Assembly (NCBI GenBank): GCA_946414095.1
Contig: CAMKNB010000001.1
Span: 3,591 to 67,590 of the forward strand
DNA from: an uncultured Mycoplasmatota bacterium
GTDB taxonomy: Bacteria > Bacillota_I > Bacilli_A > RF39 > UBA660
Reading direction: 5' to 3'
Length of the DNA: 64,000 bases
The notes under the pieces were generated by a model. It searched no databases. It worked only from the letters and a program-made list of their open reading frames with translations, and was not told where the DNA came from. Positions 719 to 49,651 of the stretch are shown here, in pieces. Position 1 is the first letter of the stretch. Each line of letters starts with the position of its first letter. The translations under genes were made by a program, and so were the position numbers.

Positions 719-1092
719 ATGACAAGAGAAGAAGCAGAAATTTATAATAAAAATGAATTAGATAAAATAAAGAATGGTGGCCTGGAACTTATGAATTAAA
801 ATATGCTTACCATGTTGAATCTACAAATAATACAATAATAATAGATTATACAATAAATGTTGGTGATATTGATACTAATGCAAGTATTAATTATAATGGT
901 CCAGGAAGAGGTAGAAGTGACAAAGAAATAGCAGTTTGTAGTCAAAATATATTAGAGTTAGAACAAGAATTAGAATTATTAAAAAATTTGGATACTGCTG
1001 TATCATATGAATGGAATAATATGAACTTGGTAGACGGAGATATTAATTTGTATGCAACAGCAATAAATTCAATAAATCCTACAATATTTTAG
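719..1092 (+). pseudogene. Frameshifted small ORF (about 124 aa if repaired), unknown function
   Basis: The ATG at 719 reads 26 codons to TAA at 797-799. A second frame is open from 766 to TAG at 1090-1092 with no ATG (..WPGTYELKYAYHVESTNN..). One extra C in GGTGGCCTGG (about nt 776-785) would join them as ..KNGGPGTYELKY... Confidence 0.35.
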
Positions 1093-1116
1093 AAGAGTTT
1101 TATTAACTCTTTTTTT
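1093..1116 (+). terminator. Rho-independent terminator
   Basis: Hairpin AGAGTT-N5-AACTCT plus T6. Confidence 0.6.
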
Positions 1117-1155
1117 AATATATTAAAATTTGGTATAATTATCTTGGTGAAGTTT

Positions 1156-1848
1156 ATGAATTCAGAAAAAATTGGAAATTTTATTAAAGAACTTAGAAAG
1201 AAGAATAATTTAACTCAACAAGATCTTGCTAAAAAATATAATGTAACTTATCAAGCGGTAAGTAAATGGGAGAATGGTAAAAATTTACCTGATATTTCGT
1301 TAATAAGACAAATGAGTAAGGATTTTAATATTAGTATTGATGATATGTTGGATGGGGAAATATCAAATAATAAAAAAAGTAAAACATTATTTATAGTTTT
1401 TGTGGTATTGGTACTAATTGTTTTAGTATTAGCATTAATTATTAAAAAAATAGAATCTAATACATTTGAATTTAAAACAATCACAACTACTTGTGATATA
1501 TTTAATGTTTCTGGAAGTATAGCATATGATAAAGAAAAGTCTTCAATATATATTTCTAACATCAATTATTGTGGTGGTGATGATGACAATGTATATGGAA
1601 AAATAGAATGTAATTTATATGAGTCAAATGAAAATATAAATACTAAAATAAGTTCATGTAATGCAAAAGAAAACGTGACATTAGAAAAATATCTTAAAGA
1701 TGTGAAATTAAATATTGATAATTATGCTCAAAAATGTAAAAAATATAATGACAATAGTTTATATTTGGAAATAAATGCAACTGATGATGGTGAACATATA
1801 ACAACTTATAAAATACCATTGAAATTAAATGATAATTGTCCTAATTAA
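1156..1848 (+). CDS. Membrane-anchored XRE-family HTH regulator with Cys-containing extracytoplasmic C-terminal domain
   Basis: N-terminus IGNFIKELRKKNNLTQQDLAKKYNVTYQAVSKWENGKNLPD is a classic HTH_3/Cro-C1 motif. One TM segment (LFIVFVVLVLIVLVLALII). ATG at 1156 is preferred over TTG at 1144 (GGTGA Shine-Dalgarno (SD) motif upstream; TATAAT at about 1133). Confidence 0.75.
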   Translation: MNSEKIGNFIKELRKKNNLTQQDLAKKYNVTYQAVSKWENGKNLPDISLIRQMSKDFNISIDDMLDGEISNNKKSKTLFIVFVVLVLIVLVLALIIKKIESNTFEFKTITTTCDIFNVSGSIAYDKEKSSIYISNINYCGGDDDNVYGKIECNLYESNENINTKISSCNAKENVTLEKYLKDVKLNIDNYAQKCKKYNDNSLYLEINATDDGEHITTYKIPLKLNDNCPN

Positions 1849-1886
1849 TAAATAATATGATATACTTATATAGAAAGTAGGTAAAT

Positions 1887-2534
1887 ATGAAGAATAAGAA
1901 GAATATTATAATTGCAATTGTATTAACAGTTATATCAGTTGTTTATACTATGTTAGTGAAAAATGTTGATGTTAGGGAAATCGGACCAAATAATTCTAGT
2001 GTTGGTTTTGGCGCAGTTAATGAATCTTTTAAAAATTTAATTGGCTCATCAAATGCAATTTATAAAATTAGTGAGTTGCTAGGCTATGTAATATTATTAT
2101 TAGTAATAATTTATGGATGCATTGGCTTATATCAGTTAATAAAAAGAAAAAACATATTAAAGGTAGACAGGGAAATAATTATATTAGGTTGTTTTTATGT
2201 ATTAATGATGGTAGTTTATATATTTTTTGAAAAATGTAGTATTAATTATAGACCAATATTAATAGATGGTGAACTAGAAGCATCATATCCTTCAAGTCAT
2301 ACAATATTATCATTATGCGTTGGGCTTAGTTCATTAATTGTAAGTCAAAAATATTTTAATAAGAAATATATTAAAACTATAAATATTATTACAATTGTAT
2401 TAATGTCACTTGTATTATTAACTAGAATAATATCAGGAGTTCATTGGATAAGTGATATTATTGGTGGAATTATTATTTCACTTACATTACTTTCTTACTT
2501 TAAATTAGCATATTTTTATAAAAGAATTGAATAA
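1887..2534 (+). CDS. PAP2-family membrane phosphatase
   Basis: Multi-TM protein with PAP2 motifs: ..YRP.., YPSSHT, and SGVHWISDIIGG (SRxxxxxHxxxD-like). Confidence 0.8.
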   Translation: MKNKKNIIIAIVLTVISVVYTMLVKNVDVREIGPNNSSVGFGAVNESFKNLIGSSNAIYKISELLGYVILLLVIIYGCIGLYQLIKRKNILKVDREIIILGCFYVLMMVVYIFFEKCSINYRPILIDGELEASYPSSHTILSLCVGLSSLIVSQKYFNKKYIKTINIITIVLMSLVLLTRIISGVHWISDIIGGIIISLTLLSYFKLAYFYKRIE

Positions 2535-2575
2535 TATTTGTTATTTATGATATATTTATTATAGGAGGTACTAAA

Positions 2576-2815
2576 ATGATTAATTTTTTAATTTCTTTAG
2601 TAATAGGAGCAATTTCAGGATGGCTTGCAGGTATTCTTATGGGTACTAAAGGTGGCTTAATTAGAAACATTATTCTTGGCGTTCTTGGAGGACTTGTTGG
2701 TGGATATGTATTAGGACTACTTGGTGTAAGCTTTGCAGGCTACATTGGTACAATAATTCAATCTGTTATTGGAGCTTGTTTATTAGTTTTTGTAGCAAGA
2801 TTTATATTTAAATAA
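2576..2815 (+). CDS. GlsB/YeaQ/YmgE-family (transglycosylase-associated) small membrane protein
   Basis: 79 aa, Gly-rich with 3 TM segments (GAISGWLAGILMG..GLVGGYVLGLLG), typical of this family. GGAGG ribosome-binding site (RBS). Confidence 0.8.
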   Translation: MINFLISLVIGAISGWLAGILMGTKGGLIRNIILGVLGGLVGGYVLGLLGVSFAGYIGTIIQSVIGACLLVFVARFIFK

Positions 2816-2840
2816 ATTCCTTATTAGGAATTTTTTTTTT
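2815..2840 (+). terminator. Rho-independent terminator
   Basis: AATTCC-N6-GGAATT followed by T10. Confidence 0.8.
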
Positions 2841-2885
2841 ACATATTTTTTAATATTTTGTAAATAATAGTATCAGGAGGGAAAT

Positions 2886-3077
2886 ATGACACAAAAAGAA
2901 TTATTGTATTTAGAAGATGCAATTGGTCATGAAAGCAATATTATTATGATTTGTCAAAGTAATCTTGAAATGATTAGTGAGCCAGAAATAGTATCTTTTA
3001 TGCAAAATGAATTAAAAAAACATATTAGTATGAAAGAAAAATTATTAAATTTCTTGGAGGATAAAAAAAATGAATGA
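2886..3077 (+). CDS. Small helical protein, partner of the downstream CotF-like gene
   Basis: 63 aa. AGGAGG RBS. Overlaps the next gene by ATGAATGA. Helical heptad-like sequence. Function not recognised. Confidence 0.45.
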   Translation: MTQKELLYLEDAIGHESNIIMICQSNLEMISEPEIVSFMQNELKKHISMKEKLLNFLEDKKNE

Positions 3078-3321
3078 TTGTTTATTATTGGATAATTATT
3101 TAATGATATTAAAAAGTACAGTTGAAGTATATGTTCATGGTACATTAGAAAGTTCAAATGAAGACACTAGAAAAATATTAAAAAAAGGACTAGATGAAAC
3201 AATGAAACATCAAGCAAGTACATATGATTTAATGTGTTCATATGGATGGTATAGTGTTGAGAATGTTAAAAATAGTGTAATTGAAGATACATTCAATAAT
3301 GTTGTTAATAAAAATTGTTAA
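3070..3321 (+). CDS. Coat F domain (spore coat protein F-like) protein
   Basis: ..LLDNYLMILKSTVEVYVHGTLESSNEDTRKILKKGLDETMKHQASTYDLMCSYGWY matches the CotF pattern (E-x-x-N-x-x-x-R ... GWY). Confidence 0.6.
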   Translation: MNDCLLLDNYLMILKSTVEVYVHGTLESSNEDTRKILKKGLDETMKHQASTYDLMCSYGWYSVENVKNSVIEDTFNNVVNKNC

Positions 3322-3341
3322 TAGACTTTAAGTCTATTTTT
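3321..3341 (+). terminator. Rho-independent terminator
   Basis: ATAGACT-tta-AGTCTAT plus a T-run. Confidence 0.6.
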
Positions 3342-3366
3342 ATTTATAATAGTTTTAGGTGATAGT

Positions 3367-3615
3367 ATGAATAAAAGTGAATTAATAAAGGAATTATCTT
3401 CTAGAATAGGGTATAATATTGAAGATACAAATAAAATAAACAACATATTTGATGATAATTTTATTATTGGCAAAAAAAATAAGGAGAAAATAATATCTAA
3501 ATTAATGGAAGTAATTAGTATTGATGAAAAAGAAGCAAATAGAATATATGAATCTTTTGCAGAATTACTAAAAGATGGAGTGTTAAATAGATTAAAACAT
3601 CCATTTGGAGAATAA
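3367..3615 (+). CDS. Hypothetical protein, 82 aa
   Basis: ORF with a GGTGA RBS. The N-terminus MNKSELIKELS resembles the HU/IHF start, but the rest does not match. Confidence 0.5.
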   Translation: MNKSELIKELSSRIGYNIEDTNKINNIFDDNFIIGKKNKEKIISKLMEVISIDEKEANRIYESFAELLKDGVLNRLKHPFGE

Positions 3616-3630
3616 GATTTAAAAAATAAT

Positions 3631-3663
3631 AGATAGTTATAAAAAAATAACTATCTTTTTTTT
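3631..3663 (+). terminator. Rho-independent terminator
   Basis: Perfect 10-bp stem AGATAGTTAT / ATAACTATCT plus T7. Confidence 0.85.
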
Positions 3664-3704
3664 GTTAGTGTATGCTAAAATTATATTTAGGGAGGATTTG
3701 TGTT

Positions 3705-4571
3705 ATGGCAAAAGCAAAAGAAGTTGAAAAGAAAGAAAAGGTAGATTTAACAAGTATTAAAGAAGAATTAAAAGATTATGTAGATTTACAAATCAAAAAA
3801 GGTTTTAATGAAGAATTAGAAAAATCAAATAAGAGATTAATTAGAGAAAAAAATAAAAAGATATTATTTAAAAACATAGTTATTATTATTTTATTGGCCC
3901 TAGTATGTTTCTTGTTATTCTTATTATATAAATCTAAATATTTTAACAAATACTTTATTAATGAAAACACTACTACTAATAATGTAATAGAGAAGACAGA
4001 AACAAATAATAAAGATGATACAAAAGAAGAAATATCTCTTCAAACTTTAATTAATCAATATTCTTATTTATTAGATAATATTTATATTAGCGAAAATAGT
4101 GAATATATTAGTGACTATTATAATGGAAAATTTACTAATGAAATTAAGAGTTATATTGCACTAAATAACTTAAATAAGGAATATATGACTACTGAAGAAG
4201 ATTACAATATATTTAGTGAAGATAAGTTTAAAGAAATATATGAGAAATTATTTGATAATTTTGAGAATGTCAGTTTTGATTATAATGGTAATAAAATAAG
4301 GTATTTGAGTATGATGAAATCATATATATCAAATAATTTAATTAATAATGAGGGGACAAATATTAAAAAAGAAATAATTGATATAAAAGTAAATGATAAT
4401 ATTGTAATTACTACTATAGAAGGATTAATACTAGATGGAAAACTATATAGAGTTTTAGATAATGCAGAAATAGAAAATTACAATAATGAAGATTTAATAA
4501 AATATGAAAATGTATTGGACAAAGTTATTTATACATTTAAAGATGGTAAATTAATTAATATTGAAAAGTGA
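3705..4571 (+). CDS. Single-pass membrane protein, unknown function
   Basis: GGGAGG RBS 10 nt before ATG at 3705 (preferred over ATG at 3672). Charged N-terminus, one TM (IVIIILLALVCFLLFLLY), N/E/Y-rich ectodomain. Confidence 0.6.
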   Translation: MAKAKEVEKKEKVDLTSIKEELKDYVDLQIKKGFNEELEKSNKRLIREKNKKILFKNIVIIILLALVCFLLFLLYKSKYFNKYFINENTTTNNVIEKTETNNKDDTKEEISLQTLINQYSYLLDNIYISENSEYISDYYNGKFTNEIKSYIALNNLNKEYMTTEEDYNIFSEDKFKEIYEKLFDNFENVSFDYNGNKIRYLSMMKSYISNNLINNEGTNIKKEIIDIKVNDNIVITTIEGLILDGKLYRVLDNAEIENYNNEDLIKYENVLDKVIYTFKDGKLINIEK

Positions 4572-4588
4572 ATAAAGAGGTAAAAATT

Positions 4589-5161
4589 ATGAATAAATTA
4601 AAAACAAAAGAAATCATTTTGTCAGGGGTATTAATAGTTTTAGGAATTAGTTTGATAATATACGCAGATAAGGTAACAAGTGCGTTATCTATAATAATTG
4701 GTGTAGCTTTAATAGTTATGGGATTAATAAATGCTGTAAGTTATTTTAAGGAAACAAAAAGCAGTGCAAGTTTAATACTTGGTACTGTTGAGATGGCAAT
4801 AGGAATATTTTTGATAGTAAAGTCATCATTTTTAAAGGAATTCATTTCTTTTATAATTGGAGTTTACATTTTATTATCAAGTATTGCTAAATTAGTGGAA
4901 GCAATTGATATTCAAAAAGAAACAGGTTACAGTCAGAAAAGATCAATAATACTATCTGCAATTGGAATGGGAATAGCAATACTATGTGGAATTGGTAAAA
5001 TTATAGTTCCTGATATGTTTTTAAAATTGATAGGGTTATTAATATTAATTTATGGAATTATTAACATAGTAAATTTATTTATTCTTAACAAAACAAAAAA
5101 AGATAATAAACTATTAGATATTAGGGAAGTTAAAGTTGTTGAAGAAAAAACAAACAAATAA
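4589..5161 (+). CDS. DUF308/HdeD-like multi-pass membrane protein
   Basis: Repeated ~25-aa hydrophobic pairs (GVLIVLGISLII..IIIGVALIVMGLINAV). AGAGG RBS before ATG at 4589. Confidence 0.6.
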   Translation: MNKLKTKEIILSGVLIVLGISLIIYADKVTSALSIIIGVALIVMGLINAVSYFKETKSSASLILGTVEMAIGIFLIVKSSFLKEFISFIIGVYILLSSIAKLVEAIDIQKETGYSQKRSIILSAIGMGIAILCGIGKIIVPDMFLKLIGLLILIYGIINIVNLFILNKTKKDNKLLDIREVKVVEEKTNK

Positions 5162-5250
5162 TAATGATTTACAAAATATTTGACAAGCAAGTTTTTTATT
5201 TAACTATTATTGAAAATAACATGTTATAATTTTAATAAAGTAGGTGTAAT

Positions 5251-5727
5251 ATGACAAGAGATGCAAAAGCAACAGTAATATCATGGTTATCTGTATTAAT
5301 AGTACTTGGAGTATGTATTTATATAATAATGCATGTTGTAGAAAACCATAAATTAGAAGCTGAAAAGCAAATGGCAAATAGTGTAGGTGATTTGGGAACA
5401 ATAAAAGTAAGTGTTAATGGAACAACATATGATGCAAAAGTTGAATCAAACACTACAGCTAAAGAATTTTTAAATATTTTACCAATTTCTCTTACTATGA
5501 GTGATTCAGATGGAAATAGGAAATATAGTTATATGTATTCAGGATTAACTACAAATTCAAGTAAAACTAAAAATTTTCAAGCTGGTGATATAGCGTTATC
5601 TGGTACTAGTACAATAGTTGTTTTTTATAAATCAACTAATTCTAGTGGAAAATTTATTAAATTAGGACATATAGATGATTTTCCAGATTTAGGAAGCGGA
5701 AGTGCAACTATTTCATTTACAAAGTAG
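5251..5727 (+). CDS. Membrane-anchored cyclophilin-like-fold protein
   Basis: N-terminal TM, then ..VSVNGTTYDAKVESNTTAKEFLNILPISLTMSD...FQAGDIALSGTSTIVVFYK, the pattern of cyclophilin-like superfamily (Cyclophil_like2) proteins. Extended -10 TGTTATAAT upstream. Confidence 0.55.
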   Translation: MTRDAKATVISWLSVLIVLGVCIYIIMHVVENHKLEAEKQMANSVGDLGTIKVSVNGTTYDAKVESNTTAKEFLNILPISLTMSDSDGNRKYSYMYSGLTTNSSKTKNFQAGDIALSGTSTIVVFYKSTNSSGKFIKLGHIDDFPDLGSGSATISFTK

Positions 5728-14796: not shown

Positions 14797-14825
14797 TTGA
14801 CAAAATTGCTTTTTTGTGCTATACT
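14797..14825 (+). promoter_or_regulatory. Sigma-A type promoter driving the riboswitch leader
   Basis: TTGACA (14797-14802), 17-nt spacer, TGc-TATACT extended -10 (14817-14825). Confidence 0.65.
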
Positions 14826-14836
14826 TAATATGTAAT

Positions 14837-14921
14837 TGAAAGGGAGTAGTTCCTATATAATAATAGAACTAATTCGTCAACTCGATAATTATATCCGGAT
14901 TAGATTAGAACGAGACTTTCA
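14837..14921 (+). promoter_or_regulatory. yybP-ykoY family (Mn2+-sensing) riboswitch aptamer
   Basis: P1 TGAAAG/CTTTCA. Conserved L1 GGAGUAG (14843-14849). CTAAT-UCGUCAACUCG-hairpin-CCGG-ATTAG (14869-14903) parallels CAAAG-UCGUCAAUUCG-..-CCGG-CUUUG of the Lactococcus lactis Mn riboswitch. 3' UUAGAACGAGAC-CUUUC parallels UUAGCAAGAC-CUUUC. Confidence 0.7.
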
Positions 14922-14944
14922 CACAATGTGTGAGAGTCTTTTTT
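14913..14944 (+). terminator. Riboswitch expression-platform terminator
   Basis: 12-bp stem AGACTTTCACAC / GTGTGAGAGTCT, loop AAT, T-run. Its 5' arm contains the P1 3' strand (14916-14921), so P1 and the terminator are mutually exclusive. Confidence 0.75.
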
Positions 14945-15022
14945 GATATCTCACAGGAAAGGAGTGATGAATAATATAAAAAATGAAAATTAAAAATACA
15001 AAAAATATAGGGAGGTTATTAA

Positions 15023-15820
15023 ATGAATGAATTTTTTGAATTTTTAAAGAAGAATAGTGAAACTATGTATGAAAAAATAGGGGAAAAGGTGAATAAGGGT
15101 AAAGATTTATTATCTACACTTAGTAAAAGAGATAGTGATAAAGATGTGTATGATGTAATTAATGATAGAGCAAATAAAAGTTTTAAAGAATTTTTGCTTG
15201 TATTACCTAAACTTGCAACACTTGTATTTAGAGCAAATAAATTAAAGAGTGAAGGAAAAGATTTAGGACCTATAGAACATGATTTAATTCTTATAATAAA
15301 GAAGATTGTACCTGTTGCTATAGATGCATCACATCACTCTTATGAAGTCTATAAAGAAATAGATTATAATTATGGAAATGATAGATTGTTAGAATATGTT
15401 AAAGAAAACGGAAAAAATCCATTAGAATTTGCATATAATTATAATAGTAATAAAAATGTTATAATGAAATTTTTAGCAATTCTATCAATTCTAGATGAAG
15501 AAGGGGTAAATCTTGATTATTTTAATGATCCAAGTATCGCTCTTAGAGTTCTTCAAGGTGAAAGCGAAATGGATATAGTGTCAGAAAAGTTTGATAATTT
15601 AAGTCCAGAATCAGTAAAAGAAATTGATAAATTGCTTGATAAAGAAACAAGTTATTTAGATTTAACTCCTGAACAAATTAATCGCTTAGATAGATATCAT
15701 TATAAATATATGAATAATAATGTATATCCAAATATGACTGAGAATAATAATATTAGTAAGCCAGAAGATAGAGTTTTAAAACTTGCTTCAAAACTTGGAA
15801 ATAAGCAAATAAGCAAATAA
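15023..15820 (+). CDS. Hypothetical soluble protein, 265 aa
   Basis: Strong GGGAGG RBS. No TM segments or recognisable motifs. First gene after the riboswitch. Confidence 0.6.
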   Translation: MNEFFEFLKKNSETMYEKIGEKVNKGKDLLSTLSKRDSDKDVYDVINDRANKSFKEFLLVLPKLATLVFRANKLKSEGKDLGPIEHDLILIIKKIVPVAIDASHHSYEVYKEIDYNYGNDRLLEYVKENGKNPLEFAYNYNSNKNVIMKFLAILSILDEEGVNLDYFNDPSIALRVLQGESEMDIVSEKFDNLSPESVKEIDKLLDKETSYLDLTPEQINRLDRYHYKYMNNNVYPNMTENNNISKPEDRVLKLASKLGNKQISK

Positions 15821-15855: not shown

Positions 15856-15880
15856 AAGAAGTAGAAATACTTCTTTTTTT
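15856..15880 (+). terminator. Rho-independent terminator
   Basis: AAGAAGTA-gaaa-TACTTCTT plus T-run. Confidence 0.8.
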
Positions 15881-15911
15881 ATGATATTATATACATAGTA
15901 GGTGATAAAAG

Positions 15912-18900
15912 ATGAAGAAAAGTGGATTCACATTAGTAGAAGTAATAGTAAGTATAGTATTGGTAAGCGTAATAATGGTGAGTATGCTAGCATCATTAGT
16001 AAAGCTTAGGGATACTTATACTGTGATACATGAAAATAGTGATGTAATAGTATACACATCATCAATTGCAAGAGTAATAAATAATGATTTGATGAAGAAT
16101 AATGGAATTAGATATGCAAATTGTACTCCAAATGGTCTTGAATGTGAATTTATATTAGGTAATGATCAAAAAAGAAAATTAGAGATAATAAAAGAAGGAG
16201 AAGATGTAGATTTATGTGATTATAGAAATAGAAGAGGAAAAGATGCAACACATGAAAGAATAACAACCACATTAAAATACACTAATACTTCAGAGTTAGG
16301 TAATGAAGGAGAATTAATATATATAAGAACACTAACATTGGATAGATATACAGAATATTCAAATTGTATAGATGGAACACAAACTGATAAATGTGAAGAG
16401 GATTTAAAAAATAATTGTAAGAAAGGTACAGTAACAACAGAAGGATATAATTTTTATGATATGAATGTACCTGATCAAAATTTATATTATGGAGATAATA
16501 ATCTAGTAGATGCAATATCAAAAGTTAATATAAGAATATGGGATGGAAAAAACGAAGAAAGTACAAAATATGATATTGTGTTATATAGTTCTGGAAGATA
16601 TGATGATAGTGAATTAGTAGGAAATACATATAAGATTGCACTTGATACTAATGGAGCAACAGAGTCTGGTACAGTAGAATTAGATGAAGTTTTTGGAGTA
16701 GCTTATTTTGATAGTGAAAAGAGTCATTCAAGTAAGAATATATTAAGAAAGATAGAAAAACCTGTAAAAACAGAAAATGGAAAACCAATGGCATTTTTAG
16801 GATACTATTATTATAAAGGTAGTGCTGATACATTAGGAACTCAAATAATAGATTCTAAAGGAACAATTGTAGCTTCAAGTAGAATATTTAGAAATGATAT
16901 AGAATTAAAAAATCTAGAAGGATTAAGTGAAGAAGATAGGCAAGCCCACGAAAGAGTAGTTGCAATGTGGGAAGAATGTTCTGGAGGATATAGGGTAGAA
17001 GATGGTGAATGTGTAGCAGAGACTTATACAGTAGAGTTAGATAAAAATGGTGGAACAGGAGGAATTAATAGTTATACAGCATCATATATGTCTCTAGTTC
17101 CAAATATATCTTCAAGTGGTTTACCTTCAAAAGCAGGATATAAATTTTCAGGGTATTATGAAGGAACTACAGAATATAATGATGAAACTGGAAAAGGAAA
17201 AGTAATATATAATCATACAAATGGTATAACGATAACTGCGAAATGGAACCCAAATACATATCAAGTATTATTTAATGTAAATGGTGGAAATGCATGGACA
17301 GGTAACACATGTGGAAGTGGATATACATTTACAAGTGGTAGTAATACATGTGCAAAGAGTGTAACATATGGATTAGCTTATGATTCTATGCCAACTCCAA
17401 TAAGAACAGGTTATACATTTGATGGATGGTATACTTCAGCAAGTGGAGGAACAAAGATAGAAACATCAACAACTTTTTCAATAACATCAACGCAAACATT
17501 ATATGCCCATTGGAAAGCTAATACATACCAAGTAACATTTAATGTAAATGGAGGAAATGCATGGACAAGCACAACATGTGGAAGTGGTTATACATTTACA
17601 AGTAGTTCTAATACATGTGTAAAGAATGTAACATATGGTTCAACTTATGGATCTATGCCAACTCCAACAAGAACAGGTTATACATTTGATGGATGGTATA
17701 CTTCAACAAGTGGAGGAACAAAGATATCAACATCAACAACTGTTGCAATAACATCAGCCCAAACATTATATGCCCATTGGACAGTTAAAGCATACCAAGT
17801 AACATTTAATGTAAACGGAGGAAATGCATGGACAAGCACAACATGTGGAAGTGGTTATACATTTACAAGTAGTAGTAAGGCATGTGCGAAGAATGTAACA
17901 TATTCATCAACTTATGGATCTATGCCAACTCCGACAAGAACAGGAAATACATTCGAAGGATGGTATACTTCTGCAAGTGGAGGAACTAAAATAGAAACAT
18001 CAACAAATGTTACAATAACATCAGCCCAAACGTTATATGCCCATTGGAAAGATGAGACCAAGCCAACAGTTAAAATAACAGCATATAACTATGATTCAAG
18101 TAAAACAAATAAAGTTGGTTCAACAACACTAAAATCTCAATCAACATTCACATCAGATGGAACATATACAGTAAGTAGTGATTGGTTAAATAGTGGAGTA
18201 ACATTTAAAATTGAATCATCAGATAATGACTCTGGTATTGAAAAAATCGTGTGGAAGTGGAATGTAACTGGTAGTTTGATAGATACAGGAAGTGAATATA
18301 ATGGCTCAAGTAGTCCAAGTACTTATACTACTGATTTGGCAATAAAATATCCGACATTTACAGGAAATGGATATAGAAAAGGACAATGGGTAGTAACAGA
18401 CAATGAAGGTAATGTATTAACAGTAACAATAGTAGCCAAAGTAGATACAACAAAACCAACAGCAACATATACAACAACAACTACACAAGCTTCATTAAAA
18501 TGTGAGGATAATATTGGACTTTCTGGATACTATTTTGGAACAAAAAGTTCACCAGCAGCTAGTGATTATACTTCAGCAAGTGGAACAAGTAAATCTTGGA
18601 CAAATAATATGACATCTGCAGGGACATATTATGTATTCTGTAAAGATGTTGTAGGAAATGTATCAAGTTCAAGTAAAACATACTATTCAGTAACATACAA
18701 TGCCAATGGAGGAACTGGAGCTCCAGCTGCACAATTAAAAGTTCATGGAGTAAATTTAACATTATCAAATGGTACGTTAAATAGAAAATATAGTACTTTT
18801 ACAGGTTGGAATACATCTTCAAACGGAAGTGGAGTTAGCTATTCAAATGGTGGGTCATATACAGGTAATGCTAATTTGACATTATATGCTCAATATAAAT

Positions 18901-19787
18901 GTGATGGATGCCATATAAATAATAGCACTGGAGATAAATGTGTTATAAATTATGGTGATGGATCTAATAACGATAAAGAAAAAGGTTATGCAGGTAAAAT
19001 TACTGCAATATATAAAGATCAAGCTGGAAATGAATTTTGTCATGAAAACTTATTAAATATTCCTTTTAAAGCTGATCATTTTGGCAATTATTCAATGGAT
19101 GATTGGATTAATAACTCTGATCATGGATATTGTTCAGATGATCCACTTTCTACGCTGGGATTCTACAGATACTTCACTGGTACACATGAATCATGGCAAC
19201 AAATTTGTACAGACGTAAATCAAAATTATACAACGTGTACCGCTACTGTTTGTAATAAACCTCCTTTTGATAGCTCAGTAGTAACCGAATTAGGAGGACA
19301 ACTTGGTTTTCATAGACCTGGTGGTAATGTCGCTAGTGAAACATCTATAGATGTAACTGCACAAAATTCATCATTACTATTCTTCATTAACTTTAGAGAT
19401 GAGGGATGTGGTCATGCTCATACAATTTCAAACATTATGTTTAAAATGGATAATGAACCATACAAAACTTTAAAACAACTAGTAGATAGTAAAGTTATCG
19501 AGCCTTTAGTCCTTATAAATACTAATTCTTTTGATCAGTATAGTGATATTACACGAAGAGTTTACAATGGAGAAGAATTGGGCACTGCTAGTTCATATTT
19601 TAATGTTATTGTTATATTTACATTAAAAAAAGGACACACGTTCAATGGTTTCAAACAAAAACAAGATGAAGCTTCTTTAAATGATCCAAAAGATTTAACT
19701 ATTGTTGGTACTTATTGTGCGGATGGAACATTTGTTAGATATGTTAGTACTGATGACTTTAATTTAACACTTAGAAATGGAAGTTAG
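15912..19787 (+). CDS. Giant prepilin-type N-terminal cleavage/methylation domain protein with Flg_new (Listeria-Bacteroides) repeats, Ig-like modules and Cys-rich C-terminal domain
   Basis: N-terminus MKKSG/FTLVEVIVSIVLVSVIMVSM has Gly-1, Phe+1, Glu+5 and a hydrophobic helix. Five GY(T/K)FxGWYT...LYAxW modules. TKPT-bounded Ig-like modules. The last ~300 aa carry many Cys. Confidence 0.8.
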   Translation: MKKSGFTLVEVIVSIVLVSVIMVSMLASLVKLRDTYTVIHENSDVIVYTSSIARVINNDLMKNNGIRYANCTPNGLECEFILGNDQKRKLEIIKEGEDVDLCDYRNRRGKDATHERITTTLKYTNTSELGNEGELIYIRTLTLDRYTEYSNCIDGTQTDKCEEDLKNNCKKGTVTTEGYNFYDMNVPDQNLYYGDNNLVDAISKVNIRIWDGKNEESTKYDIVLYSSGRYDDSELVGNTYKIALDTNGATESGTVELDEVFGVAYFDSEKSHSSKNILRKIEKPVKTENGKPMAFLGYYYYKGSADTLGTQIIDSKGTIVASSRIFRNDIELKNLEGLSEEDRQAHERVVAMWEECSGGYRVEDGECVAETYTVELDKNGGTGGINSYTASYMSLVPNISSSGLPSKAGYKFSGYYEGTTEYNDETGKGKVIYNHTNGITITAKWNPNTYQVLFNVNGGNAWTGNTCGSGYTFTSGSNTCAKSVTYGLAYDSMPTPIRTGYTFDGWYTSASGGTKIETSTTFSITSTQTLYAHWKANTYQVTFNVNGGNAWTSTTCGSGYTFTSSSNTCVKNVTYGSTYGSMPTPTRTGYTFDGWYTSTSGGTKISTSTTVAITSAQTLYAHWTVKAYQVTFNVNGGNAWTSTTCGSGYTFTSSSKACAKNVTYSSTYGSMPTPTRTGNTFEGWYTSASGGTKIETSTNVTITSAQTLYAHWKDETKPTVKITAYNYDSSKTNKVGSTTLKSQSTFTSDGTYTVSSDWLNSGVTFKIESSDNDSGIEKIVWKWNVTGSLIDTGSEYNGSSSPSTYTTDLAIKYPTFTGNGYRKGQWVVTDNEGNVLTVTIVAKVDTTKPTATYTTTTTQASLKCEDNIGLSGYYFGTKSSPAASDYTSASGTSKSWTNNMTSAGTYYVFCKDVVGNVSSSSKTYYSVTYNANGGTGAPAAQLKVHGVNLTLSNGTLNRKYSTFTGWNTSSNGSGVSYSNGGSYTGNANLTLYAQYKCDGCHINNSTGDKCVINYGDGSNNDKEKGYAGKITAIYKDQAGNEFCHENLLNIPFKADHFGNYSMDDWINNSDHGYCSDDPLSTLGFYRYFTGTHESWQQICTDVNQNYTTCTATVCNKPPFDSSVVTELGGQLGFHRPGGNVASETSIDVTAQNSSLLFFINFRDEGCGHAHTISNIMFKMDNEPYKTLKQLVDSKVIEPLVLINTNSFDQYSDITRRVYNGEELGTASSYFNVIVIFTLKKGHTFNGFKQKQDEASLNDPKDLTIVGTYCADGTFVRYVSTDDFNLTLRNGS
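17253..18053 (+). repeat. Three tandem 267-bp (89-aa) near-identical coding repeats
   Basis: Units start at 17253, 17520 and 17787 (NTYQV(L/T)FNVNGGNAWT..TCGSGYTFTS..MPTP.RTG.TF.GWYTS.SGGTKI..LYAHW). Confidence 0.9.
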
Positions 19788-19835: not shown

Positions 19836-19879
19836 AGTAGACAGAAATGAATTAAATCATAAATATCTGTCTACTTTTT
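19836..19879 (+). terminator. Rho-independent terminator
   Basis: AGTAGACAG ... CTGTCTACT plus T-run, with a long 22-nt loop. Confidence 0.6.
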
Positions 19880-36535: not shown

Positions 36536-36583
36536 AAAAATCACAATACATGTAGTATAATGAACGTGATTAGGGGTGAATAT

Positions 36584-37006
36584 ATGAATAAATTAGGTTG
36601 GGGACTTAGAGCTGAACTTGGATTTTTACTATTATTTTTAATTTGTTTGTTAATATCAACAATTGGATTACATAAACTTGGTTTAGTTGGTAATAATGAA
36701 CCTGGTGTTGAAGAAGACTTAAGTATATATACAATTGGCAATGGTAATTTTGATTATGAAGAATTAGAAAATAATGTTACTAGTGCGGCAAAAAGATATT
36801 ATGAAACGAAGTATCCATATGGAAGTACTGACACAATTGTTGTAAGTGTTGAAACTCTTAAGAATAATGGTTATTTGAGTCCAATATATGATAGTAGACA
36901 TAAAGAATGTAATGGATATGCTAAAATACTTAGAAGTAAAACAATAGTGTCATACATAAAGTGTTCAGTATACAAAACACCAGGATATAGTGAAGATTAT
37001 GAATAA
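36584..37006 (+). CDS. N-terminally anchored small protein, unknown function
   Basis: GGGGTGA RBS before ATG at 36584. One hydrophobic N-terminal helix, then ..VSVETLKNNGYLSPIYDSRHKECNGYAKI..IKCSVY. Confidence 0.55.
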   Translation: MNKLGWGLRAELGFLLLFLICLLISTIGLHKLGLVGNNEPGVEEDLSIYTIGNGNFDYEELENNVTSAAKRYYETKYPYGSTDTIVVSVETLKNNGYLSPIYDSRHKECNGYAKILRSKTIVSYIKCSVYKTPGYSEDYE

Positions 37007-37325
37007 GAAGATAATGGTGTTGTGGGCAGTTGTAGTAGTTCTATTGTTAACTGCTATATTCTTAATTGGATACTCTCGTAAAGATAAAGACTATATGAAA
37101 TTAGAAGCTAGCATTAGAAATGCCACATATTTATATTTAAAAAATAATAATCAAATTCCTGAATTTGATGAATCCGCAATAGTTTTTACAGAAGATTTAT
37201 TGAATCAAGAATATTTAAAAGATAGTAAATCTTTAAATAAATATTGTATTAAAAGCGTTGTGTTTACAAAAGGACTTATTAAAGATAAATATAAAATAAA
37301 TATGGAATGTGAGATAGATAATTGA
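36999..37325 (+). CDS. N-terminally anchored small protein; distant paralogue of the preceding gene
   Basis: Overlaps the previous stop codon. TM, then ..IVFTEDLLNQEYLKDSKSLNKYCIKSVVF..MECEI (same h-h-x-L-x-x-x-YL...C...C layout). Confidence 0.5.
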   Translation: MNKKIMVLWAVVVVLLLTAIFLIGYSRKDKDYMKLEASIRNATYLYLKNNNQIPEFDESAIVFTEDLLNQEYLKDSKSLNKYCIKSVVFTKGLIKDKYKINMECEIDN

Positions 37326-41443: not shown

Positions 41444-41785
41444 ATGAAAACAGATATAGAATATAAAAATAATATATTGTATGTAAAAGCACCATGTGTG
41501 CTTGTTGGGAATAAGACTAATAAATTTGAGTCACTTGTTATCCCACTTATATTAAATCTTAATGCTAAATATGTTACAGTTAATTTGAAAGATGTAGATT
41601 TAATTGATAAAAAAGGGGTTAATTCATTAATAAAACTGTCTACAATTGTTAATAGAAATAAAGGAAAACTTGTTCTTTGTGAATTAAATGAATATGTTAA
41701 ACAGTATTTTAAAAATACTGATGTGTTTGATTATTGCTTTAAATCGAAAGACTTCAATTCGAGCATCGAGGTGTTTAAAATATGA
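41444..41785 (+). CDS. STAS-domain protein (SpoIIAA/RsbV-like anti-sigma-factor antagonist) lacking the phosphorylatable Ser
   Basis: ..YVTVNLKDVDLIDKKGVNSLIKL.. aligns with the SpoIIAA segment ..LNLEDLSFMDSSGLGVILG.., so DSSG becomes DKKG. No SD upstream. Confidence 0.7.
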   Translation: MKTDIEYKNNILYVKAPCVLVGNKTNKFESLVIPLILNLNAKYVTVNLKDVDLIDKKGVNSLIKLSTIVNRNKGKLVLCELNEYVKQYFKNTDVFDYCFKSKDFNSSIEVFKI

Positions 41786-42423
41786 ATGATATTCTAACAG
41801 AAAGGATATTATCTTCATCAAATTTAATATATAAAATAGCATCTAAATATAAAGATTATTATTGCGTTGAGGATTTATATCAGGCAGGTTGTTTGGGGGT
41901 TATTAAAGCTAATAATTGTTATGTTGAAAATAATAATACTAAGTTTTCTACATATGCATATAAATTTATATTAGGAGAAATAATTGATTTTATTAGAAAA
42001 GATAAAAATATTATAATAAGTGATGAGGCTTATGAAATATATAAAAAGTATTTAAAAGTTAAAGAATTACTATATTCTAAGTATGAAAGAGAAGTGTCTT
42101 TTAGTGAAATATGTGAATATATTGGTATAAGTGAAGATAAAATGCTTTCTATAATTAAGAGTGTATCAATATTTAAGAGTATTAATGAAGATGAAAATAA
42201 TTATAATAGTTACTATTCTGATGATAGAGAATTAATTGATAATGAGATATTACTTCAAAGCGAACTTCAAGAATTAGATAGTTTTGACAGATCATTAATA
42301 GAATACAGATATTATCAAGGATATTCTCAAAGTGAAACTGCTGAGATGATGGGATTATCTCAAGCTAAGGTATCAAGGTGTGAAAAATTAATATTAAATA
42401 GAATTAAAAATAATATTGCATAA
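41782..42423 (+). CDS. Group-3 sigma-70 family sigma factor (SigF/SigG/SigB-like)
   Basis: Region 2: DLYQAGCLGVIKA, FSTYAYKFILGEIIDFIRKD. Region 4: GYSQSETAEMMGLSQAKVSRCEKLIL. ATGA overlap with the STAS gene. GAGGTG RBS. Confidence 0.85.
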   Translation: MNDILTERILSSSNLIYKIASKYKDYYCVEDLYQAGCLGVIKANNCYVENNNTKFSTYAYKFILGEIIDFIRKDKNIIISDEAYEIYKKYLKVKELLYSKYEREVSFSEICEYIGISEDKMLSIIKSVSIFKSINEDENNYNSYYSDDRELIDNEILLQSELQELDSFDRSLIEYRYYQGYSQSETAEMMGLSQAKVSRCEKLILNRIKNNIA

Positions 42424-47639: not shown

Positions 47640-47716
47640 GTCCTCGTAGCTCAGTAGGATAGAGCGGTCGCCTCCTAAGCGACAGGTCGTTGGTTCGATT
47701 CCAATCGGGGACGCCA
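47640..47716 (+). tRNA. tRNA-Arg (anticodon CCU)
   Basis: Acceptor GTCCTCG/CGGGGAC, D arm GCTC..GAGC, anticodon stem GTCGC/GCGAC with loop CTCCTAA, T arm GTTGG-TTCGATT-CCAAT, encoded CCA. Confidence 0.93.
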
Positions 47717-47749
47717 CTATTTTGTTTTTGTAGTAGGGAGGTTATTATA

Positions 47750-49651
47750 GTGGAGCATGTTGAAACGAATAGAGATAAAAGCCTAAGGGCTTTGCAATTA
47801 TTGCAACTTGAGGGACTTAAAGAAATAGATAGAATTTGTAGAAAACATAATATTAAATATTCATTAGGTGGTGGAACTTGTCTTGGCCAATTAAGACATG
47901 GAGGTTTTATCCCTTGGGATGACGATATTGATGTAGATATGACAATGGAAAATTATAAAAAATTTCTGGATGTTGTAGAAGATGAAATAGATCATAATAA
48001 ATTTTTCTTTAGATGTAGAAAAACAGATAAAAAGAATTATAGAACGAGTTCAAGATTAGAACTTGTAGATACTCATATGCTTCAAAAAAGATGGGAAAAT
48101 AACAATTTGGACGTTGGCGTTTTTGTTGATATCTTTTCATGGAGTTATTTACCAAATAATAAATTTTTAAGAAAAATAGTATCTACTAATTTGTTCTATT
48201 TAAGATGTATTCAAAATTTTAAGCAATTTCATAATTTTGCTAAGAAATCTAGTAGATTTTCAAGACCATTTATATACTTATTTGGAACAATATTACCAAG
48301 TGGAGTAGTAAATTTCTTTGAAAAATTATTATGTAATTGTTGTGGAAAAAGAAAAACTAAGTGGATAATGGATGATGCTATTATTAATGGTAATCATGGA
48401 GGCTATCCATCTGATGGAATAGATGAATATACCGATGTGAAGTTTGAAGGCATTACTGTTATGAATAAAAAGAATGCAGATAATTTTATGAGAACTATAT
48501 ATGGTCCAAAATATATGGAATGGTTACCACCAGTTCAAAGATTATCTCATCATAAATGGACAATTGTTGATTTTGGGCCTCATATTGAGAAATATGATTT
48601 ACCTGAAAATTATAATGAATACTTATCAATAATATATACACCTACTAAACTAAAGCATATGCAAAAGTTATCATTTGATATGGTATCTTATATTTCTAAA
48701 GTATGTAAAAAGAATAATTTAAAATATTTTATGACAAATGAGTCATGTTTATATAACGAATATAATATAAGTGAACATGGTACTTTATGGAATAGTCCAA
48801 TGACAATAGCATTACCTAGAAGTGACTATGATAAGTTATGTAAAGAACTTGAAAAGAATGAAAATAAAATGTATTTTTTACAAAATAAAAAAACAGATAA
48901 AAAGTTTCATTTAAATTATTCAAGATTTATGATTAATTGTACTTATATGAGAGATGCTAGTATTCCTCTTTTCATAGAAGAAAAAATGGCAAATGGTTTT
49001 TATATAAATATAGTAGCTCTTGATTATGCTCCTAATAATTTAGGAAAACAAAAATCACTTAGAAGAAAAGTTAAACGTTTAAATCATCTTTTGGTTGTTA
49101 AATCATATCAAGCAGTGCATAAAGGTAAAAGAAAACATGATATAAGAGTTTTGAGACGTTTGTTTGTTAAAATTAGGCTATTATTATTAAAACCTTTATC
49201 TATTAGTAGAATAAATAGAAAATTAAATAAACAATTAGCTAAAAATAAAAATACTAACTATTATATTGATTCAACAGGAACTTTATTAAAAGGAAAGATA
49301 TTCAATAAATCAATATTTGGTAGTGGAAAAGAATATGAATATAATGGTTATAAATTAATGTTTCCAAGTAAACTAACTGATTTTAATAATATGTATTTTA
49401 ATGATAAAGAAATTAATGAAACAAAACATATAAAATATTTGAAAGAAAATAGTCCTGTATATTATAGAAAAAAATATGTAGATAGTATTTCGAATGAATT
49501 GTTAGAAAAAATTGAACATAGATATAAATCATGTCATTTAACTTATTTTGATTTAGATGACTATCAATTATCTATATTAAGATATGATAATAATAAGAAA
49601 AAGTATTTATCTAATGAAGAATTAGTGAAAAATTTTAATTTTAAAAATTAA
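47750..49651 (+). CDS. Tandem LicD-family phosphotransferase (intact N-terminal LicD domain plus degenerate second copy)
   Basis: LQLLQLEGLKEIDRICRKHNIKYSLGGGTCLGQLRHGGFIPWDDDIDVDM is the LicD signature. The second half (..KLSFDMVSYISKVCKKNNLKYFM..) repeats the fold without DxD. GGGAGG RBS before GTG at 47750. The track start at 47690 lies inside the tRNA. Confidence 0.8.
   Translation: MEHVETNRDKSLRALQLLQLEGLKEIDRICRKHNIKYSLGGGTCLGQLRHGGFIPWDDDIDVDMTMENYKKFLDVVEDEIDHNKFFFRCRKTDKKNYRTSSRLELVDTHMLQKRWENNNLDVGVFVDIFSWSYLPNNKFLRKIVSTNLFYLRCIQNFKQFHNFAKKSSRFSRPFIYLFGTILPSGVVNFFEKLLCNCCGKRKTKWIMDDAIINGNHGGYPSDGIDEYTDVKFEGITVMNKKNADNFMRTIYGPKYMEWLPPVQRLSHHKWTIVDFGPHIEKYDLPENYNEYLSIIYTPTKLKHMQKLSFDMVSYISKVCKKNNLKYFMTNESCLYNEYNISEHGTLWNSPMTIALPRSDYDKLCKELEKNENKMYFLQNKKTDKKFHLNYSRFMINCTYMRDASIPLFIEEKMANGFYINIVALDYAPNNLGKQKSLRRKVKRLNHLLVVKSYQAVHKGKRKHDIRVLRRLFVKIRLLLLKPLSISRINRKLNKQLAKNKNTNYYIDSTGTLLKGKIFNKSIFGSGKEYEYNGYKLMFPSKLTDFNNMYFNDKEINETKHIKYLKENSPVYYRKKYVDSISNELLEKIEHRYKSCHLTYFDLDDYQLSILRYDNNKKKYLSNEELVKNFNFKN

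Follow-up and report, generated by a model that had tools for sequence, protein, structure and literature searches.

We analysed a 64,000-nucleotide stretch of DNA (hereafter the window) from contig CAMKNB010000001.1 of an uncultured Mycoplasmatota bacterium, in which a single large gene encodes a protein with a pilin-like N-terminus followed by a long array of other domains. The gene is a complete open reading frame (ORF) at positions 15912..19787 of the + strand, the strand on which all features within it and on its immediate flanks lie, and specifies a protein of 1291 residues (amino acids, aa; 141 kDa, pI 5.5). A Shine-Dalgarno sequence, AGGTGA, occupies 15900..15905 with the ATG 6 nt further on, and a weak promoter-like site (TAGAAA-17-TATTAT, TG-extended) is found 5' of the gene at 15862-15890. 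Beyond the stop codon, positions 19837..19879 form a terminator-like hairpin, GTAGACAGA ... TCTGTCTAC, with a 20-nt loop and a following TTTTT; it was read straight from the sequence, the hairpin scan having omitted it for a loop longer than 8 nt. The sequence, the Shine-Dalgarno site and the hairpin bear out the 1291-aa ORF that had been called in an earlier inspection of the letters alone (the sequence-only reading). The protein has only one hydrophobic segment, aa 11-30; no LPXTG motif, C-terminal anchor or second hydrophobic segment is present, and the chain ends in ...DFNLTLRNGS. The GC content of the gene is slightly raised, 0.31 against 0.25. Horizontal acquisition was considered on this ground and set aside, as the Gly/Thr/Ser-rich composition of the protein can account for the difference.

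The N-terminus, MKKSG/FTLVEVIVSIVLVS, was recognised by the two prepilin models at scores above their curated thresholds, 24.7 bits with PF07963 N_methyl (against 21.2) and 19.9 bits with TIGR02532 (against 16.3), which confirms the class III prepilin signal proposed in the sequence-only reading. It is the only prepilin-type motif in the window by six-frame scan. The leader peptide MKKSG (aa 1-5; 15912..15926) ends in Gly-1, and the sequence G|FTLVEVIVSIVLVSVIMVSMLASLV presents sequence hallmarks of a type IV pilin, a class III signal with Phe+1 and with Glu+5 in a hydrophobic alpha1N of ~21 residues; cleavage by a prepilin peptidase is predicted between G5 and F6. Downstream of the leader, a predicted alpha1 helix (aa ~8-62; 15927..16097), delineated by AlphaFold2 and by hidden Markov models (HMMs), carries the hydrophobic alpha1N with Phe+1 and Glu+5. 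The helix opens a larger pilin-like module (aa 1-370; 15912..17021), defined by homologue alignment and AlphaFold2, whose other parts are an antiparallel beta-sheet, what may be a degenerate unit of the Flg_new type (aa ~239-317) and a short linker bounded by Cys. In the AlphaFold2 model of this head (predicted local distance difference test, pLDDT, 77.6), a helix at 8-62 is predicted to pack on antiparallel beta-strands, an arrangement that resembles the lollipop fold of pilins, in which an alpha1 helix of ~53 residues lies against an antiparallel beta-sheet. Residues 239-317 match an HMM built from the protein's own Flg_new repeats weakly (E 0.006), so the pilin domain proper may comprise about 230 aa plus a degenerate repeat. 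No Pfam family matched aa 27-370. The first ~77 residues gave weak, sub-threshold matches to the minor-pilin models PRK10557, ComGE, ComGF, GspI and GspJ; the cut-offs for GspJ-, PilW- or ComGF-type proteins were missed by a wide distance (PRK10557, 22.5 bits against 120; ComGE, 22.6 against 49; ComGF, 18.4 against 80; PRK08808, GspJ-type, 12.2 against 295).

The roughly 350 aa behind the signal had been described as unique; they proved to belong to a conserved module. A protein search with aa 1-370 retrieved 21 relatives, all with ≤47% identity and all from metagenomes or metagenome-assembled genomes (MAGs), one of which, P0017, belongs to an assembly (L020) that is also in the genome collection. 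Scanning metagenomes with a head-trimmed alignment brought 19 further loci, so that the family counts about 40 metagenomic proteins, the shortest of 384 and the longest of 1442 aa. One metagenome contig, L090, encodes a protein 98% identical to that of the window. The head module is 335-370 aa long in most relatives, with insertions up to ~450 aa in a few. Two cysteines, Cys71 and Cys78, are invariant in the family and sit as a pair in the beta-sheet. Mean column identity over the head module is 24%, whereas G-1, F+1, T+2, L+3, E+5, S+9 and L+12 are invariant in all 32 family sequences aligned. Gly-1 is a determinant for the prepilin peptidase and Glu+5 for filament assembly; their invariance against so low a mean identity therefore indicates selection on more than a membrane anchor. 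By analogy with known pilins, we infer that a processing and an assembly step may be what is being conserved.

The same alignment bears on whether the head might be a Sec signal-anchor or signal peptide of the ordinary kind, like a prepilin by chance only, the protein then being a conventional Flg_new repeat adhesin, either secreted or anchored in the membrane. The HMM scores exceed the cut-offs by a few bits only, and no pilus machinery lies nearby, as this reading would have it. Against it, the motif is the sole one in a six-frame scan of 64 kb, each of its residues is conserved in 32/32 homologues, whose identity elsewhere is only 26-50%, and the C-terminal domain described below stands behind two further, independent prepilin heads, both above the Pfam cut-off. 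We regard a chance resemblance as very improbable.

Behind the head lie five Flg_new stretches (Pfam E 1.6e-54), as the sequence-only reading had counted them. With the own-repeat HMM they were placed at aa 371-452, 449-533, 538-622, 627-711 and 924-993. This repeat corresponds to InterPro entry IPR013378, which we take to be the Listeria/Bacteroides repeat. Repeats 1-4 (aa 371-711; 17022..18044) are contiguous, and repeats 2-4 contain an inserted Cys-Cys loop. At the DNA level, a tandem repeat with a 267-bp period (3.0 copies, 89% matches; 17253..18051) covers units 2-4, which arose by recent tandem duplication. A middle region (aa 712-923; 18045..18680) follows, in which two segments, each started by D-x-TKPT, were read from the sequence; it had been labelled Ig-like, and no Pfam or PDB match was found for it. 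The fifth repeat (aa 924-993; 18681..18890) separates this region from the C-terminal domain.

Listeria internalins also contain Flg_new repeats, and the protein is matched in part by internalin models of NCBIfam, which would suit an internalin-type or sortase-anchored wall protein with an unusual signal. The scores speak otherwise: the internalin_A model reaches 50 bits against a cut-off of 1600, through the B-repeats only, and the protein has no leucine-rich repeats (LRR), no LPXTG motif and no C-terminal hydrophobic anchor. An internalin or sortase substrate is scarcely credible. Motif conservation and the missing LRR and LPXTG effectively exclude both this explanation and the chance Sec signal.

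What follows the head differs from one family member to another. Some relatives (384-490 aa) consist of the head module alone, with no cargo; others measure 747, 773, 845 and 1072 aa, two are incomplete at ≥802 and ≥891 aa, and the longest, from locus L094, has 1442 aa. Among the elements of the varying C-terminal arrays are Flg_new repeats, Cys-rich repeats of the ephrin-receptor-like kind and a glycine-rich tail. The L094 protein (918-5252) bears a different cargo: its Flg_new and Cys-rich repeats lead into a long tail that is rich in glycine and contains Cys. A constant head with varying arrays is the carrier-plus-cargo logic of modular pilins. Since the family reaches 1442 aa, with others at 750-1070 aa, the window protein is no size outlier, and the 'unprecedented size' once attributed to it does not hold.

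The last ~300 residues form a Cys-containing beta-sandwich domain (aa 994-1291; 18891..19784), delimited by homologue scan and AlphaFold2. The sequence-only reading could place it in no family: no sequence match was obtained in Pfam, PHROG or PDB (PHROG was also empty for its short homologues), and a word-indexed search with the domain found no relatives, but an exhaustive HMMER scan recovered nine among 1.84 billion representatives. Two of them, P0022 and P0024, are full-length. Each begins with a conventional prepilin head that passes the Pfam cut-off, continues with one or two Flg_new repeats and ends in the domain; the pairwise E of P0022 with the window protein is 1e-55. Three relatives are fragments; in P0023 and P0025, Cys-rich ephrin-receptor-like repeats precede the domain. 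Three further relatives are short proteins without a pilin head. One of these, P0029, can be aligned to the C-terminal domain almost from end to end (pairwise E 1e-8, 27% identity), and its gene stands directly after an 846-aa Phage_fiber_2 tail-fibre gene in a phage module ordered portal, capsid, adaptor, fibre and then endolysin, integrase, holin. The element that encodes P0029 (L116 1010-12884; also L117 and L118) is a temperate phage with a P22/SU10-type portal, an integrase and a holin.

The AlphaFold2 model of the C-terminal domain is compact (predicted template modelling score, pTM, 0.82), with a confident beta-sandwich core. Foldseek comparison of the model with PDB returned galectins, carbohydrate-binding modules, TNF or C1q-like domains and a tailspike, nothing among them being significant. 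In a viral structure library, the matches were C-termini of tail fibres and collagen-like fibres and proteins of the Mtd or C1q type, three of the matches with E <1e-3. From the model, we infer a predicted distal ligand-binding domain.

Taken together, these results suggest that the window protein is probably a modular minor pilin belonging to a filament, either a type IV pilus or a Com-type one, that is assembled by genes located in another part of the genome, and that it most likely acts as a filament-tip adhesin. The display of an adhesin, as put forward in the sequence-only reading, thus stays the best reading, without the record size. Support comes from the occurrence of the C-terminal domain behind two unrelated conventional pilin heads, those of P0022 and P0024, from its presence in the tail-fibre-adjacent phage protein P0029 and from the absence of LPXTG or any other anchor. 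The protein would be inserted into the membrane through its class III signal, and MKKSG would be removed after Gly5 by a prepilin peptidase. The 55-residue alpha1 helix with its Glu+5 would then dock a pilin domain of ~230 aa into the filament, at or near the tip; a tip position is the most likely one because an extension of ~125 kDa cannot fit the filament body. The Flg_new repeats and the middle region could serve as an extended stalk presenting the C-terminal beta-sandwich, which may bind a surface ligand, for example a glycan or receptor on the host or on another microbe.

Several results weigh against this interpretation. Foldseek comparison of the 370-aa head model with PDB found no solved pilin, and a profile search of PDB sequences with the head module matched the head motif alone, with no pilin for the globular part; pilin likeness may escape structure search because the model has several subdomains and alpha1N is missing from most crystal structures. 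The matches of the C-terminal domain are weak, with an E of 0.013 for the best PDB structure and template modelling (TM) scores of 0.2-0.3 in the viral library, and the phage relative P0029 has a borderline whole-library E of 4e-4. Then there is the machinery. Reading of the translations, with a motif scan for T2SSE and A24, revealed no T2SSE, T2SSF, A24 signature or recognisable pil or comG gene in the window, in agreement with what had been noted from the sequence alone. Co-occurrence of the homologues with type IV pilus or Com loci, which the sequence-only reading had proposed to look for, was not seen: no T2SSE, T2SSF or Peptidase_A24 is encoded within ±10 kb of more than ten related pilin loci, including those of P0022 and P0024. 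The T2SSE/A24 motif scan was likewise negative over ~1.4 Mb of relatives' DNA, a small and repetitive part of each genome and a weak test, because 80 of the loci span the same rny region. Finally, the many different bulky pilin-headed proteins of the lineage would compete as cargos for filament tips.

How much the missing machinery means depends on how pilin genes are organised in the lineage. Members of the head-module family occupy at least eight loci at different chromosomal positions, among them Lon-LysM, PGK-TIM-Spo0A-iPGM, a site beside AddA and an ABC transporter, a site beside MutS, Obg-gene-NusB-XseA and the rny junction. No conserved partner gene was found beside them family-wide, only in one syntenic subgroup. 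The relatives have further pilin-headed genes with unrelated cargos, each single amid housekeeping genes (L011 12562-13449; L051 16727-18034 and 21193-21549; L060 7266-8627; L018 6734-7642; L068 19853-20290). By eye, one of these cargos looks like a beta-helix or GLUG-type region and another like a coiled coil with a phage-tail-collar-like C-terminus.

A search with the ~125-aa pilin module of a close relative gave 1039 matches, mostly stand-alone pilins of 130-200 aa. Small conventional pilins (134-175 aa) form a conserved locus, murG-divIB-ylbD-ylbE-[1-3 pilins]-nfo, in many species of the lineage (for example L113 10001-11014, L111 10001-10471 and contigs of GCA_016648615.1), and one such pilin, P0091, is alone indexed in 496 blocks of the sequence collection. 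This locus, too, has no assembly genes nearby. Every pilin locus examined, small conventional pilins included, is thus unlinked from machinery, so that orphan pilin genes are the norm of the lineage and the window gene is not special as an 'orphan substrate'. Because pilin genes are dispersed, a machinery-free window says little about the whole genome. The conservation of one to three small conventional pilins argues that the lineage probably makes a filament. A literature search on pili or competence genes in RF39 or RFN20-type Bacilli found nothing relevant.

The same organisation would also suit display without a filament, in which the prepilin-type head is a general sorting and anchoring signal, alpha1 remains in the membrane and the stalk pushes the binding domain through the wall. 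The many dispersed singleton genes with very different bulky cargos, their consistent separation from assembly genes and the fact that the N-terminal helix is the protein's only anchor all fit such an arrangement. Archaeal sugar-binding proteins, surface proteins outside filaments that have class III signal peptides, are a precedent (PMC3047682). Three points tell against it. Glu+5 is invariant in 32/32 sequences, and this residue is needed for filament assembly, not for a mere anchor; small conventional pilins, typical filament subunits, are conserved in the lineage; and even this arrangement would need a prepilin peptidase, which was not located in the DNA searched. For the alternative named in the sequence-only reading, a new use of the prepilin signal, the results speak neither for nor against. 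We consider filament-independent display an appreciable possibility, although clearly the less favoured one beside a modular minor pilin.

A wider and more speculative proposal is that the pilin head has become a general display platform on which this genome-reduced lineage of gut and rumen Bacilli shuffles bulky adhesin cargos, encoded by scattered single genes; we think this rather doubtful as it stands. The cargos, which include a domain common with a phage tail-fibre-adjacent protein, may compete for filament tips or act filament-free. Such a platform could serve attachment to other microbes or to host glycans, by analogy with the pilus-dependent episymbiosis of Saccharibacteria.

Should the window protein prove to be carried on filaments, few pilin subunits of defined architecture would be larger, and two unannotated families, a head of ~370 aa and a tip domain of ~300 aa, would be added to the pilin toolbox. 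The lineage-wide pattern may matter more than the single gene, since dispersed pilin-headed genes with swapped cargos suggest diversification of adhesion. The pilin-headed genes of the lineage could serve as a catalogue of its surface-binding specificities.

The window has a GC content of ~25% and an RNase P of class B, and its other ORFs look like housekeeping genes (an ABC transporter, D-Ala carboxypeptidase, RNase Y, PriA, Fmt, RecA, RNase J, FtsY, RecD2 and CdaA). A genome scan with the adjacent RNase Y identified 80 loci in uncultured gut or rumen MAGs, with RNase Y identity up to 93%. Their titles name Erysipelotrichaceae, Bacilli, Mycoplasmatota or Tenericutes, and Clostridium sp. CAG:1000 is among them; we take CAG-1000 to be part of the reduced-genome order RF39. 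The synteny upstream of rny is kept in these relatives, and in none of them does either the 265-aa ORF or the giant gene stand downstream of it. Apart from the window, the only place where that ORF (15023..15820), the 5' neighbour of the giant gene, accompanies the pilin-like gene is metagenome contig L090 (98% identical); no other relative has it. The window gene next to the giant gene on its 3' side, a HAD-like one, directly follows rny in CAG:1000, and the second-closest relative, L011, has a different pilin-headed gene at the junction. The content downstream of rny thus differs between relatives, which places the giant gene in a variable junction.

Between rny and the 265-aa ORF, at 14797-14948, we observed a near-consensus promoter (TTGACA-17-TATACT, TG-extended) with a strong terminator ~90 nt further on (13-bp stem and T-run). 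This element could be a small RNA or a leader; it had no Rfam match at E<=1, and conservation was not seen in any of the searched relative loci L001-L089. Four other sites of the window deserve mention. At 36560-37325, ftsY-ylxM is followed by two small membrane-anchored ORFs (148 and 111 aa); at this place the relative L068 has ffh, a gene that is not visible in the window. An 882-aa protein (54990-57638) with a hydrophobic signal-like stretch at its N-terminus is the second large surface protein of the window and has no pilin head; its many repeats of ~90 aa resemble FN3 on visual inspection. At 41444-42423, a 113-aa ORF resembling anti-sigma antagonists precedes a 213-aa ORF of the sigma-70 family; genes of the Spo0A and SpoIVB type are present in the related loci L004 and L096, and, judged by sequence, this hints at sporulation-type regulation possibly retained in a small low-GC genome. 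For the 653-aa ORF at 47690-49651, the listed TTG start overlaps tRNA-Arg(CCT) (47640-47716), and the true start is probably further downstream.

Among known systems, the closest are the modular pilins. PilB and PilC of Streptococcus sanguinis are encoded within the pil locus. These two pilins resemble the window protein in having a class III pilin carrier with C-terminal grafts (a von Willebrand factor A, vWA, module in PilB and a lectin module in PilC) and in being predicted tip-exposed adhesins (PMC8179133). They carry one extra module, whereas the window protein carries at least seven extra units on a much larger, unannotated pilin module of ~230-370 aa, and its gene is unlinked from machinery. 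GspK of the type II secretion system (T2SS) lacks the Glu+5 that is present in the window protein. Together with CofB of enterotoxigenic Escherichia coli (ETEC), GspK is a bulky minor pilin with extra domains and a proposed tip complex, as we propose here (PMC8179133). To minor pilins of the GspJ, PilW and ComGF type, likeness is confined to the weak matches of the first ~77 residues, far below cut-offs, with no similarity by Foldseek. The internalins InlA, InlB and InlH of Listeria share the Flg_new B-repeat; unlike them, the window protein has no LRR, no LPXTG or GW anchor and another type of signal. With phage fibres, the likeness consists of the domain common to P0029 and the window C-terminus, the adjacent tail-fibre gene and structural matches to fibre C-termini and Mtd or C1q-like folds; it is limited by low TM-scores, the lack of a PHROG family and the whole-library E of 4e-4 already mentioned.

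The class itself has been described. Raynaud et al. (2021) defined modular pilins and catalogued more than 1200 such proteins in 264 architectures, multi-domain cases included (PMC8179133), which makes outdated the statement in the sequence-only reading that described modular pilins carry only one grafted module. By their definition, an IPR012902 motif with at least one domain not specific to type IV pilus biology, the window protein, with N_methyl and five Flg_new repeats, is a modular pilin. The most extreme case cited has 860 residues and 12 repeats (PMC8179133). Dataset S1 of that study lists IPR012902 followed by IPR013378 once in one protein, twice in nine, three times in two and five times in one, plus mixed forms, so that both the class and the N_methyl/Flg_new grammar are already catalogued (PMC8179133). 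The entry with exactly N_methyl and five repeats, up to which the listed copy numbers reach, has the same grammar as the window protein; these entries are uncharacterised database architectures, and they are likened to it by domain grammar alone (PMC8179133). Because the modular-pilin concept is already published, the step taken here is incremental, unless the protein turns out to act without a filament or between microbes. New beside that catalogue are an unannotated family of head modules, a rare C-terminal domain with a link to a phage protein, protein lengths of up to 1442 aa, and, within one uncultured lineage, a dispersed organisation of genes that swap cargos.

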